Shown in pieces: positions 4,397 to 52,440 of a stretch of DNA of 64,000 nucleotides. The translations under genes were made by a program, and so were the position numbers. Source of the DNA: a virus (Duplodnaviria > Caudoviricetes); IMG/VR virus record IMGVR_UViG_3300037400_001962, positions 58,702 to 122,701 of that record, one strand, 5' to 3'. Every line of letters begins with the position of its first letter. The first letter of the stretch is position 1. Below the pieces are notes generated by a model, which saw only the letters and a program-made list of their open reading frames with translations, ran no database searches and was not told the origin of the DNA.

Positions 4397-5434
4397 ATGA
4401 CACTTAATGAATTAAAAGAACTTGCCCTTCATGCTGTTAGGGGTACTGCTCCTGATACCTTCACTGTTGAGAACGTTAATGACGCTTTCGCTGATGGCTT
4501 AAAGGAGTTTGCTGGTAGTTATAACCAGTTCATGAAGAATCGCTACGATCTGTATGATATTATTATTCAGTCTATTGACGAAATTCTTCCTCGTGATGTT
4601 ATGACCGCTATCGGTCAGTTTGCTGAAATCCAGTCCGTCGCCCAAGGACAAAAAGCTATGTTCCGTAAAAAGCTCGGCCGCGCCCGTGCTAAGAAATTCC
4701 TTACTCAGGTTGGTCTGAGTGGTGTTTATGAGACATTCCGTCTCGATAGCGAGACCTTCGAACTTGGTGCTCATGCCGTTGGTGGCGGTGCTACTATCGA
4801 CTTCGAGCGTATGCTTGATGGCGCTGAGTCTCTTGCAGAAGTTGTTGGTATTGTGACTGAGGGTCTGACCAATGCTGTGTATGTTGAGGTTCAGAAGGCT
4901 CTTGTTGCTGCTTATGCAGATATGCCTGCTACTAACCGTTATGCTGGCGCTTGGAACGCTGAGGAAATGGTTAAGCTGATGAATATTATCCGTGCTTACG
5001 GTCAGCCTGTTATCTTTGCTTGCCCTGAGTTCATCGCTGCTATGGGCCCTGATGCTATCGTTCCTGTGTCTACCGGTACTGGTCAAGGTGTTTACAGCCC
5101 CAAGGATATTGAAGCTATCCATGATACTGGTTTCATTAAAGTATTCCGTGGTGCTACTGTTGTTGAAATTCCTCAATCCTTTGTTGATGAGAATAACAAA
5201 GAGACTTACGTGAATCCTCGTTTCGCTTATGTTATGCCTGGTGGAGCTGAGAAGGTTGTTAAGGTTGTTCTTGAAGGCCAAACTCAGATTCGTGACCACG
5301 AGAATAAAGATAATTCTATGGAAGTTTACGCATGGAAAAAGATGGGATGCGCTATTCTGCATCACAACAACTGGGCTATCTATGAGAACACTTCTCTCAC
5401 CGATACCTCAGCTAAGGACATCTACGGTTTCTAA
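4397..5434 (+). CDS. Major capsid protein
   Basis: 345 aa, strong RBS, strong codon bias, TAG-free, followed by a terminator. Canonical position in the head module. Confidence 0.8.
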   Translation: MTLNELKELALHAVRGTAPDTFTVENVNDAFADGLKEFAGSYNQFMKNRYDLYDIIIQSIDEILPRDVMTAIGQFAEIQSVAQGQKAMFRKKLGRARAKKFLTQVGLSGVYETFRLDSETFELGAHAVGGGATIDFERMLDGAESLAEVVGIVTEGLTNAVYVEVQKALVAAYADMPATNRYAGAWNAEEMVKLMNIIRAYGQPVIFACPEFIAAMGPDAIVPVSTGTGQGVYSPKDIEAIHDTGFIKVFRGATVVEIPQSFVDENNKETYVNPRFAYVMPGGAEKVVKVVLEGQTQIRDHENKDNSMEVYAWKKMGCAILHHNNWAIYENTSLTDTSAKDIYGF

Positions 5435-26644: not shown

Positions 26645-26676
26645 AAAAACACAGAGCATAAGCTCTGTGTTTTTTA
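26645..26676. terminator. Bidirectional terminator between the convergent late (+) and early (-) arms
   Basis: AAAAACACAGAGC-ataa-GCTCTGTGTTTTT. Confidence 0.8.
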
Positions 26677-26683
26677 TATCTTA

Positions 26684-27055
26684 TTAAATTCTCTCCGTTA
26701 ATATATCCATCAATCCATCCATAATATTAAAATCAATATCTATATCACCAAATTCATCAATATCAATAGGGTCAATTTCAATATTATTGTTTATCTTCAT
26801 TAGCTCTTCAAATTCTTCTGCAAATTCTTTTGTCTTTTCTGGAGGAATTCTAATTCTACCGTCTTCTTCAGATTCACCATACTTCCGATATAATTCCATC
26901 TGTTCTTGCTGAATTGTATCTGTAAAAGATTGAATAATTTTTTTAATCCTTGCTAATTTATAACTTGCTTTAATGTTTAAAATAACTTTGCTTTCTCGCA
27001 AATTATTTATACTTTGATTTATAGAGAGAATTTGTTGATTTGTTAATTCTATCAT
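26684..27055 (-). CDS. Hypothetical phage protein (DUF1617-like)
   Basis: Intact 123 aa ORF with an SYKLAR-type motif and acidic C-terminus; family call from memory. Confidence 0.5.
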   Translation of the reverse strand: MIELTNQQILSINQSINNLRESKVILNIKASYKLARIKKIIQSFTDTIQQEQMELYRKYGESEEDGRIRIPPEKTKEFAEEFEELMKINNNIEIDPIDIDEFGDIDIDFNIMDGLMDILTERI

Positions 27056-27904
27056 TTAATTTCCTTCTGCCTCCCAATCAATTATCTCCACTTTTGGAGA
27101 CTATATATCACTAAAATATTTCCCGATGCCAATTGCATTAAATCTGTTTAATAAATATAACTCATTTAATTTATTATAATCTTTATAAGATATTTCAATT
27201 AAAGGTATAGAATTTTTCTTACAGTATTCACGTTTTAATTCATCTTTTCTTTGACAGTCTATTAATCTTTCTTCAGTGAATATCCAACCAGTTTTATAAT
27301 GTTGTTTCCCTTGATATTCAATTAAACATATTAATTCATTGCTATCATTAAAGATAGCAAAATCAAAACGCAAATAACTTTTATCTTTTAAATCATTAAA
27401 TTTATACTAAGTTTGAAATTTAATATTTAATTCTCTAAGTAACACACCAACTTTTTCTTCTCCATGAGACTATATACATCCACAAGAAGTGGTAGTCCCA
27501 TCTCGCAAAGAAGTGCCACGAATTATTGCAATATTTCCACACTCACATTGACACTACCAGTAAACTTGCCGTGATTTAGATTTTTTATCTGCTAATTTTA
27601 TTACTGTTAAACGGCCATATTTGTTTCCTGTTTCATCAATAAATTCATTAGAACTTACTCTTTCTTTTTGGTAGCATCCACATGATTTAGTATGCCCAGT
27701 TTTTAATGAATTTGCAGTAGTTACTGCATAATTCCCACAATCACATTTACAAAGCCAAGAACCAATACTGCCATGATTATTAGGATTTGTAACTCTATAT
27801 AAAGGAGTTAATTTATAAAATTTTATTCCAGTTATATCTTTTGCTCTACCTAGTGGGCATTTCTAATATTCAGGATGCTATTTTAAAAAATCTATTTCAT
27901 TCAT
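27056..27904 (-). CDS. Free-standing putative homing endonuclease: two CxCxCG..SCGC zinc-ribbon repeats plus a Vsr/DUF559-like nuclease domain (TAG read as Gln)
   Basis: WLCKCDCGN...KSCGC, WQCQCECGN...TSCGC, LRFDFAIF..LIEYQGKQHY..DELKREYC. Starts overlapping the ruvC stop and ends TAA 27058-27056. Confidence 0.75.
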
Positions 27905-28622
27905 TTTCCCAATCAACTATTTCAGTTTGTGGATACATAGTATCTACAAAATATTTCCCTATACCTATTGAATCTGCAATATCATCAGTTACATTTAAAT
28001 TAAACCATTCTTTAACTAATAACTACATACTGCGTTTCTTATCTGGTCTAGTACGACCTTTTACACCACAATGTAAGCGCCAAGTATTGGTAGGTACAAT
28101 TTTATAATGTACTTTTTCTTCTACACAAGTCGCGGCCAGTATACCTTGAAGGCGCGCGAGCGTTTCAAAAGTAGTGACACCAGCAGTTGACTAATACTAG
28201 ATGCCTTCAAGCCCAACGAAATCTATTTCGTACTAATCAATTAAAGAAATCATCCACTACTTTACATCTATACTTCTTTCAATATCATCATCACCAGAAG
28301 CTATATGACTTCCATAATCAATTAGATTTTTATTATTGAAGACTGCATAGCCACTTGTATGTGTTGCCTAATCAAGCGCGAGAATACGATACTCGCCTTT
28401 TTTCTTTTTAGTATTCCGGAATTCTTTTGTCTTTAGGCGCTCACGCATACAAATTGGGCATATGCGATTTCCTCGGATTTTTTTCCAAGGCGCAATTATA
28501 GTGTGTCCTTTATCGCATTTAAACTCCAAATTAGAATCAAGATTCTAGTATGTTTCACTTATTAGTATCCATTTATCTGGCGCGATTTCAGTTTTTATAT
28601 CTTCGATTGATATGCGGGCCAC
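27897..28622 (-). CDS. ruvC: RuvC-like Holliday junction resolvase with an N-terminal zinc ribbon (TAG read as Gln; absent from the ORF track)
   Basis: GTG 28622 to TGA 27897. Motifs ILALDQATHTSGYAVF, VGLEGIQY, TLARLQG, WRLHCGVKG, DDIADSIGIG; N-terminal CDKGH...CPIC. Confidence 0.75.
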
Positions 28623-28623
28623 A

Positions 28624-29514
28624 TTAGTTCACCCCAGTACTCCCAAAGCCGGCGCCGTGGTCATCTTTAAAATCACCGAGGTCTTCAATTTGACGCCATC
28701 TTACTCGTGGAATTTCGACTAGGCGCATCTGTGCAAAACGCTCGCCTTTACCGATAGTGATTGGGCTTCCATACTTTTTAACAAGTTCTAGATGATCCGA
28801 TGGTTCATAAATATCTACATCTTTTACTCGTTGGTCAGTATTCTCCACGATGACTCCAATCTCTTTATGAAAATCTTCATCAATAAGACCAGGAGTATTA
28901 GCAACACGTAGCTTTATGCGAGAACTTAAACCAGAACGTGGCTGAATAAGTAAACCATATCCATGGGGAATTGCGACTTTAATACCAATAGGAATAATAA
29001 CTGTTTCGCCGCACTCAATTGTATACTCTTCTGGTGAATAAATGTCCATTGCACCCGCGTCGTTAGTTTCATAAGTAGGAAGTTTCGCGTTTTCTCTACA
29101 AAGTACAACTGGAATTTCAACCACATGCGCTGGGTTAATTGTTGAAGAAGAAATTGAATTGGCCGCGCTTGTAAATAGGAACTTGATGAAGTCTTTTTTC
29201 GGCTGACTCAGCTCGACTCCTTGATTGAACAGTTCATCAATAACTTCATCGCTACGATTAACAATATCATCAATAGAAATACCAGACTGAGCGAACATTT
29301 TTACCATCATCATTTGGGCTTGTGGATCTTCATAAGCTTTTGCCATTTCCTCTTGAAAGAGTGGACGAATGATTTCAAAGTCTTTATCAGGCATAGCAAG
29401 AAGGACTCCAAGAATATCAAGACCAGTTGCTTCTGGATTATCAAGTATGTCACCGACAGCTTCAATTGAACTGTCGCTCATTTTCATCATCTGCTCAATT
29501 TTCTCTTCATTCAT
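28624..29514 (-). CDS. dut: Trimeric dUTPase with an N-terminal extension
   Basis: Motifs AGAMDI, QPRSGLS, NTPGLIDEDF, GERFAQM, GFGSTG. Start placed at the second Met (MNEEK). Confidence 0.85.
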   Translation of the reverse strand: MNEEKIEQMMKMSDSSIEAVGDILDNPEATGLDILGVLLAMPDKDFEIIRPLFQEEMAKAYEDPQAQMMMVKMFAQSGISIDDIVNRSDEVIDELFNQGVELSQPKKDFIKFLFTSAANSISSSTINPAHVVEIPVVLCRENAKLPTYETNDAGAMDIYSPEEYTIECGETVIIPIGIKVAIPHGYGLLIQPRSGLSSRIKLRVANTPGLIDEDFHKEIGVIVENTDQRVKDVDIYEPSDHLELVKKYGSPITIGKGERFAQMRLVEIPRVRWRQIEDLGDFKDDHGAGFGSTGVN

Positions 29515-29725
29515 CTTCCCATACCTCACCATAAATCTTTGTTGCAGTTACAATCCAAGCCTCAGCTACAACTTCGCCTTTTGCTTTCTTTGTCTTATAT
29601 TTATATCCATTGGCGCCGAGTGTATAGCCTTCTTTATTTTGATTCGCGCGCAGGTCATTTAGGGCTTGAATTGCTTCTTCTTCTGTATATGCTTTAAATT
29701 CTTCTGTAATTTTAAGCTTCCTCAT
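29507..29725 (-). CDS. Hypothetical protein
   Basis: 72 aa ORF with AGGAG RBS. Confidence 0.6.
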   Translation of the reverse strand: MRKLKITEEFKAYTEEEAIQALNDLRANQNKEGYTLGANGYKYKTKKAKGEVVAEAWIVTATKIYGEVWEDE

Positions 29726-51574: not shown

Positions 51575-51603
51575 ATTATATCAAAAATTTACTCATTTTG
51601 CAA
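51575..51603 (-). promoter_or_regulatory. Sigma-A-type promoter
   Basis: TTGCAA-17 nt-TATAAT with TG. Confidence 0.65.
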
Positions 51604-52338
51604 ATTTTGATTAACAATGATTTTTAATATTTCTTCTTCTAGAGAATCTATTTTTGTATATGGAATCTCATATAAAGGAATATTATTTTCTTTACACATA
51701 TCTCTTTTCTACTAATCTCGATATTGTGTCCGTTCAAAGTTTTCTTGATTATTCCAAGTCGTTTTATGATTATAATACTTATAATGCTATTCACCTTGAA
51801 ATTCAATTAAACAATTTAATATGCCATTTTTAAATATACCAAAATCAAAATATGGACAATTACCATTTAAGAAACGCCAACCTTCAGGAGTAAATTGAGT
51901 AACATAAATAATACCATATTTATCTAATAAATTTTGTATATTGGCTTCACCAGATGATACAAGACAACCGCATGATTTAACCCGGCCTTGTAATAAATTA
52001 GTAGCAGAAACATAATGAATATTATGTTTTTCACATTGGCATTCACATTTCCAAATTACACCATTTTTATTAGAATCTATTGGTTCTATCGCTAAGAGTC
52101 TTCCAAATAACTATCCAGTTAAATTTTTCGCATTATTCTTCCCTACTTGACACCCTCTTACGGTAGCCTAACATCCACATGATGTTTGTGCTCCGCGGCG
52201 TAATTCATCACCAGTAATTACTTTAGTATTGCCGCAGTCACACTAACATAACCAAGTAGCTTTACCATTTTTACTTCCAGCACGCTAAAGAACTGTTAAA
52301 TGTCCATAAATATGACCAGTTTCATCTTTAACTCCCAT
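51589..52338 (-). CDS. Second zinc-ribbon plus Vsr-like putative homing endonuclease (TAG read as Gln; absent from the ORF track)
   Basis: WLCQCDCGN...TSCGC, WKCECQC...KSCGC, YFDFGIF..LIEFQGEQHY; paralogue of 27056-27904. Confidence 0.75.
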
Positions 52339-52440
52339 ATACATTTCCTCCGTTTAAGAAATATTAAAGATTAGCTTAATGAAACGGCATTATTATCTCA
52401 AGAGTTTGCAAATCTCTCGCTCCCTAACCTTTCTGTATAT

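Follow-up and report, generated by a model that had tools for sequence, protein, structure and literature searches.

The closest described counterparts of the locus reported here are the mORFs of fungal mitochondria, endonuclease ORFs which make gene hybrids in atp6 of Allomyces macrogynus and in atp6, atp9, cox2 and nad3 of Glomus sp. (PMC3630166 and its reference 48). In these systems, as in the phage locus, the endonuclease ORF lies within the 3' part of the host gene, the host reading frame continues into a foreign and diverged C-terminal piece brought along by the ORF, the native counterpart has been moved downstream and is closest to that of insert-free relatives, and the insertion varies among close relatives; in some of the Glomus cases the parts are mutually in phase, as they are here (PMC3630166). 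An earlier note on this DNA had pointed to such a fungal mitochondrial precedent, and the published cases bear it out. The present locus differs in that it belongs to a tailed phage of the cattle gut which appears to read TAG as glutamine and not to a mitochondrion, in that the nuclease is of the Vsr-like/DUF2726 type with zinc-ribbon modules, in that the start of the ORF overlaps the stop of the rebuilt gene while its end reads through the displaced native end, and in that several independent target backbones are on record, together with an empty site from the same sample.

In phages, intronless homing is described for the free-standing endonucleases SegF, SegG, SegB and MobE of the T-even group (PMC2988022, PMC2330249, PMC2790892). 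The locus shares with these a promoter-less, free-standing endonuclease gene which rides an existing phage operon, and by analogy it would also share the presumed cutting of the endonuclease-free allele of a conserved neighbour and the spread with short co-converted flanks. The T4 genes, however, lie between genes and have no duplicated gene end (the word stem 'duplicat' is absent from the T4 mobile-element review), whereas here the gene lies inside its target, comes with a spare end and has the native end fused to it as a remnant. As the case of Aeh1 nrdA (Friedrich et al. 2007) is described in PMC8351571 and PMC2988022, mobE is likewise a free-standing endonuclease gene inside an essential phage gene that still works, but nrdA is split into two polypeptides while ruvC stays one by means of the carried end.

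For the nuclease itself a comparison is offered by I-Bth0305I (PDB 3R3P, PMC3239194), a phage-borne EDxHD/Vsr-like enzyme that is encoded by a group I intron and targets the recombination gene recA. The candidate nuclease described below shares the fold of the catalytic domain with it and with E. coli Vsr (PDB 1CW0), and is likewise phage-borne and apparently aimed at a recombination gene. It differs from I-Bth0305I in being a free-standing member of the DUF2726 family and not intron-encoded, and from both enzymes in its predicted DNA-binding part, two Cys-rich zinc-ribbon-like modules. In the phage literature reached by full-text search and in the T4 mobile-element review we found no description of a carried gene end, subscription journals being mostly outside this coverage. 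The carried-gene-end lifestyle has thus far been documented in fungal mitochondria, and the phage case seems new to the literature searched. We propose, with a probability of roughly 85%, that the element is a free-standing homing-endonuclease cassette lodged inside ruvC.

Layout of the locus and edges of the cassette

The source record of the window (the whole 64-kb stretch of DNA analysed) is a 122,701-bp virus genome with terminal repeats, and the phage is a tailed phage of the cattle gut. All genes of the region lie on the minus strand in the order dUTPase-domain gene, ruvC, endonuclease, 123-aa gene and hairpin (Table 1). The ATG of the endonuclease overlaps the ruvC stop, and the start codon thus sits within the imported ruvC end. 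Scanning for promoter- and terminator-like sites gave none between ruvC, the endonuclease and the 123-aa gene, and inside the cassette no signal over shuffled background. The product of the 123-aa gene is 82% identical in amino acids to that of L093 and 54% to that of L001. Some relatives hold an extra Cys-rich ORF of 58-60 aa between the stop of ruvC or of the remnant and the 123-aa gene (L124:1318-1500, L129:4846-5022 and L002 about 4726-4900), which is missing in the window, L093 and L127.

Table 1. Features of the ruvC region, with their positions in the window
Feature	Position	Strand	Remarks
dUTPase-domain gene, 302 aa	28624..29532	(-)	1 nt 5' of ruvC; Pfam dUTPase on the L127 orthologue
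ruvC, 241 aa, TAG read as Gln	27897..28622	(-)	N-terminal zinc ribbon and RuvC-fold resolvase; from ORF and translation
Imported ruvC end, from the third base of codon 210 to codon 241 and stop	27897..27993	(-)	
Mobile cassette, 854 nt (855 with G>A at 27139)	27140..27993	(-)	Comparison of filled and empty sites
Endonuclease ORF, 282 aa, 6 in-frame TAG	27056..27904	(-)	ORF call with TAG read as Gln
Endonuclease proper, codons 1-255	27140..27904	(-)	Two Cys-rich zinc-ribbon-like modules, then a Vsr-like/DUF2726 PD-(D/E)XK nuclease domain
Junction codon	27137..27139	(-)	AAT (Asn) in the window; GAT (Asp217) in native alleles, L129 and L130
Displaced native ruvC tail, endonuclease residues 257-282	27056..27136	(-)	Native codons 218 to the end and native stop
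123-aa gene, 3' of the endonuclease	26684..27055	(-)	Directly 3' of ruvC in insert-free relatives
Two-way terminator-like hairpin	26645..26674	.	3' of the 123-aa gene

These reading frames depend on the genetic code. In the whole genome 41 of 86 long ORFs hold an in-frame TAG, and ruvC orthologues have CAA or CAG where this gene has TAG, which supports the reading of TAG as glutamine in this phage. ARAGORN detected 10 tRNAs in the complete genome, none of them with the suppressor anticodon CUA. The use of TAG is uneven over 26684-29532 (-) of the window, with seven in ruvC, six in the endonuclease and none in the 302 codons of the dUTPase gene or in the 123-aa gene.

The edges of the cassette were set by comparing filled and empty sites. 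Native alleles have 19-20 nt where the cassette stands, and the native ruvC letters lost are those of codons 210-216, directly before the codon of the last catalytic Asp, D217; the site occupied is accordingly codons 210-217 of 241. The filled/empty pairs L127/L093, whose flanks are about 96% identical, and L129/L002 have identical junctions: filled and empty sequences diverge from the third base of ruvC codon 210 and converge again at codon 217, for which L129 and L130 have GAT and the remaining four backbones AAT. An empty-site contig from the public run X8 joins the equivalents of 27138 and 27994 with exactly 20 native letters between them. This run, a gut metagenome of a separate study, holds both forms, the filled one at a depth of 18 and the empty one at 6.7. 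The left flank is backbone-specific up to 8 nt from the junction, and on the right the markers AAT and GGG, within the first 18 nt of the remnant, accompany the cassette in four of the five backbones. Both pairs and the X8 contig agree with the earlier note in placing the insertion in ruvC at the motif with the two C-terminal catalytic Asp residues. Its edges had to be corrected: the site does lie in the catalytic motif, but the left junction lies seven codons 5' of the duplicated part, and 19-20 nt were replaced.

In the cassette a diverged version of ruvC codons 211-241 comes first, and the Vsr-like endonuclease gene comes after it. As it replaces 19-20 nt and brings a replacement end, the reading frames show RuvC to be still encoded whole, by native codons 1-210 plus the imported end. 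The insert leaves ruvC at 241 codons, a length shared by insert-free alleles, and retains D214 and D217.

The duplicated ruvC end and the two gene products

No gaps are needed to align the final 25 codons of ruvC (27900-27974) with the final 27 of the endonuclease (27059-27139), and 16 of 27 residues (59%) are identical. A tblastn search of the whole window gave an E-value of 6.8e-6 for this match, and the DNA is alignable too; the similarity of the two ends is well beyond chance. The segments at about 27072-27138 and 27907-27973 which the earlier note took as two copies of one tail both fall within the aligned copies, and the refuting case it named, a similarity no better than chance, is not borne out.

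To tell the two copies apart we turned to IMG/VR and JGI metagenome contigs, which yielded 21 different ruvC alleles without the insert, 62-88% identical to the window protein. The 123-aa gene comes after ruvC in every case, in some with a small extra ORF between, and all 21 end in the downstream-type tail at 72-92% amino acid identity, the outcome proposed beforehand for relatives without the insert. Most insert-free tails have an in-frame TAG at the same codon, which is also kept in the remnant, and the first 24 residues of the remnant are identical in amino acids to the native tail of L108. The endonuclease has no stop codon of its own; its frame continues into the native ruvC tail and stops at the native ruvC stop. 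The native end, pushed downstream, is thus shown by its reading frame to add the predicted last 26 residues and the stop of the endonuclease, as had been claimed, and this holds in all five backbones compared below.

The window's own ruvC end, on the other hand, is unlike every native allele. Codons 1-210 are native to the backbone of the window and codons 211-241 are imported: at ruvC nt 631 the match to the nearest allele without the insert falls from about 90% identity to 60-73%. Between the imported end and native tails pN is 0.26-0.28 and pS 0.52-0.76, while pN between native ends is 0.01-0.10 (0.04-0.10 between native alleles at similar pS), and the imported end differs from native ends at many otherwise fixed residues. 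A VTDD variant in its left part is shared with the distant alleles L112 and L018 only and not with the local clade, which suggests that the end came from elsewhere or that a changed site was selected. All insert-bearing contigs have this same imported end. Searched across IMG/VR and JGI metagenome contigs, its peptide pattern was found only beside the endonuclease, and these contigs gave no lineage with the imported end as its natural ruvC end. The import of a ruvC 3' end by the element, part of the original interpretation, is in line with an end that accompanies the endonuclease in five backbones and matches no native allele.

The ruvC product matches the RuvC-like family PHROG 159 (E 7.6e-21) and lies under the Pfam RuvC cut-off (PF02075, 20.8 bits against 22.2), hence we take it to be a diverged phage RuvC-like resolvase by its sequence. 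An AlphaFold (AF2) model reached a pLDDT of 81.9, and the best Foldseek matches of this model were the RuvC of phage bIL67 (4ktw) and E. coli RuvC (1hjr). The matches agree with an RNase H-like RuvC fold (4ktw_A, E 1.7e-7; 1hjr_A, target-normalised TM 0.81 and rmsd 2.4). D84, E139, D214 and D217 are invariant in 13 of 13 ruvC alleles, and from the acidic pattern we assume that they correspond to D7, E66, D138 and D141 of E. coli. D214 and D217 lie at the start of the last helix of the model (213-228). DNA and protein searches of GenBank phages gave no close relative of the window ruvC, the best being 37% identical in amino acids. A TetR match to the ruvC profile among solved structures was discarded as a chance hit.

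Two further features of RuvC were observed. Residues 1-75 (28398-28622, (-)) form a conserved N-terminal zinc-ribbon domain in 22 of 22 alleles, which matches the N-terminal modules of phage 'HNH endonuclease' families (PHROG 559, 9.5e-7; PHROG 681, 7.9e-5) and is an unusual addition to a resolvase. At the extreme C-terminus, native and imported ends alike (27900-27926 and 27065-27091, (-)) have a nearly fixed Pro...Glu-Ile-(Ile/Val)-(Asp/Asn)-Trp-Glu peptide. For this short acidic Trp peptide the model predicts disorder (pLDDT 40-51), and it may serve to bind a partner.

The endonuclease matches Pfam DUF2726 (PF10881) over residues 177-248 with 30.9 bits against a cut-off of 24.7, and also the homing endonucleases of PHROG 374/559/9084. 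Invariant in the family are Cys residues together with D181, E196, Q201, H202, D221 and K224; set against 41 relatives the window protein is of full length and keeps every invariant Cys and acidic/His residue. By sequence no match was found among solved structures. The model (pLDDT 87.9) is Vsr-like over residues 145-262, with Z-scores of 10.8 to 1cw0_A, 10.7 to 3r3p_A, 9.9 to 1vsr and 8.8 to 3hrl, and with rmsd values of 2.6 over 105 residues to 1cw0_A and 2.8 over 95/97 to 3r3p_A. The two Cys-rich zinc-ribbon-like modules and the Vsr-like fold agree with the type of nuclease suggested earlier. By family and fold we suggest the candidate nuclease to be a free-standing homing endonuclease. The gene is under purifying selection (pN/pS 0.06-0.12), which together with the intact conserved residues speaks for its predicted activity.

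The ruvC-derived extension stands apart from this protein. More than 900 relatives of the endonuclease were found, and their coverage extends only over about residues 20-255; in GenBank phages, DNA and protein searches gave distant matches only. The confidence of the model falls over the last 26 residues (block means of 79, 47 and 44), with pLDDT under 50 at residues 271-276 and 280-282. An alignment of L012-L015 to residue 280 proved to be an artefact of reading through TAG in a standard-code phage.

Other members of the family occur nearby. A second one lies in the window at 51589-52344 (-); it has 251 aa and 7 in-frame TAG, is 38% identical and has a gyrA-like gene on one side and an 86-aa gene on the other. 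At L003:2287-3018 (also in L097, L098 and L099) a 243-aa paralogue, 40% identical, lies between a 71-aa gene and the dUTPase gene; the site is empty in the window and is hence a second polymorphic endonuclease site, 1 kb from ruvC. A host-gene tail was considered for both paralogues and rejected, as both are free-standing and end without a duplicated tail. A third copy lies outside the window (G000:C1:16700-17491 (+)), is 36-42% identical and, with its frame broken by TGA and TAA, looks like a homing-endonuclease gene in decay.

Spread of the cassette among phage backbones

Five backbones were compared, those of the window, L001, L124-126, L127/128 and L129/130, giving at least five diverged backbones with this cassette in this position. 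The cassette is 95-99.6% identical in nucleotides across the five, whose ruvC bodies are 88-92% identical, and each of them has the imported end, the endonuclease and the read-through into the native tail and stop. The window and L001 are about 97% identical over 28017-27074, while their flanks are 67-89% identical. Synonymous divergence is 0.09-0.20 in the cassette against 0.41-0.46 in the ruvC body, and for the endonuclease it is 0.09-0.16 between the window and the other carriers.

The remnants, in contrast to the cassette, are backbone-specific. The remnant of L127 corresponds to the tail of L093 and that of L129 to the tail of L002, and in both pairs the match extends to the variable last residues and the following gene. 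None of the remnants has a frameshift or stop, which would fit a recent arrival of the cassette in each backbone. Between remnant and sister native tail all differences are synonymous except at the junction codon. Selection on the remnant was considered as a reading of these differences and set aside, since it is indistinguishable from recency and the differences may predate the insertion.

In a tree of the ruvC bodies six insert-bearing rows are interleaved with three insert-free rows in a 9-row clade. A single insert-bearing clade is rejected (AU p 0.00014), and the tree calls for at least three gains or losses. All carriers belong to this clade and more distant alleles have a very similar site, which shows what is probably either limited spread or limited sampling. 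One metagenome holds the insert-bearing L091 together with the insert-free L093, L098 and L100. The endonuclease cluster comprises 19 sequence variants on many contigs, and the holders listed are mostly from bovine gut metagenomes, from 18 studies, with no RNA run among them. Decayed or lost copies of the cassette, as the usual homing cycle predicts, were not seen.

A proposed homing cycle, its alternatives and its meaning

Judged from the position of the insertion, the endonuclease would in a mixed infection cut ruvC alleles that lack the insert, in or close to codons 210-217, and repair would then copy from the cassette-bearing genome, with the ruvC body as left homology arm and the displaced tail and the downstream gene as right arm. 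Indirect traces of such inheritance are the short right-flank markers shared among carriers and the presence of both forms in a single sample. The cassette-bearing genome would itself be spared, since roughly one in three positions around the site is changed in the upstream copy and the left half of the site is missing from the downstream copy. As the cassette ends without a stop, the fused tail is most simply explained as a by-product, and most likely the ruvC-derived extension of the endonuclease is such a by-product that doubles as repair homology. We consider it rather unlikely, but not negligible, that the read-through into the displaced end is selected and not incidental, the shared C-terminal peptide recruiting the endonuclease to a RuvC partner or to recombination intermediates. 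If true, this would couple cutting by the endonuclease to repair via a RuvC-type C-terminal peptide and, with the rescue copy carried along, turn the cassette into a natural 'cut and rescue' gene drive that targets a recombination gene within a population of phages.

The cassette might also be passive cargo, its endonuclease inactive or cutting elsewhere and the block moved by ordinary homologous recombination. These phages are mosaic, the identity of the flanks ranging from 54% (amino acids) to 89% (nucleotides) between the same two genomes, and a block of 0.85 kb is movable by general recombination between them; the spread is moreover limited to one clade, and both the candidate target site and the predicted resistance of the imported end are read from position. 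Against this, the edges are equal within a few bases in five backbones, selection on the endonuclease is strongly purifying, the imported end includes the start codon of the nuclease gene, and the cassette sits on the most conserved, catalytic stretch of ruvC, as is typical of homing endonucleases. Taken together, we find passive transfer improbable.

Still less credit is due to a local origin, by which the ruvC end was copied in place, the endonuclease landed between the copies and the upstream copy diverged, with nothing imported. The two copies are indeed colinear and of equal length, and Beaudet et al. weighed this less parsimonious option for two mitochondrial cases (PMC3630166). Yet the upstream copy is near-constant (97%) across backbones with ruvC bodies 8-12% apart while the downstream copy varies by backbone, and codons 210-216 are replaced, not duplicated. 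Nor would local divergence account for a VTDD shared with L112 and L018 outside the local clade, or for a pN of 0.27 in the upstream copy, far above the 0.04-0.10 of native alleles at similar pS.

A chimeric contig joining two ruvC alleles around an unrelated gene, as mixed-strain metagenome assemblies can yield, is hardly conceivable, for the same layout is found in the 122.7-kb genome with terminal repeats and in eight other, separately assembled contigs (ENA, JGI, Logan), and contigs of further runs also cover the junctions.

On the favoured reading of a homing cassette that brings its own ruvC end, free-standing homing endonucleases of phages can enter an essential gene without intron or intein by way of a spare gene end, which would be a third route. 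For annotation, this route yields chimeric gene ends, odd C-terminal extensions of nucleases and short 'orphan' gene tails, all of which mislead gene calling and phylogenies. The zinc-ribbon modules joined to the Vsr-like domain would provide a new sequence-specific nuclease scaffold with a defined candidate target. As a natural system the locus offers five backbones with the insert, empty sites to match them, a sample in which the two forms occur together and a nuclease gene under purifying selection, and it permits direct tests of target choice, of immunity by recoding and of the minimal homology for homing.
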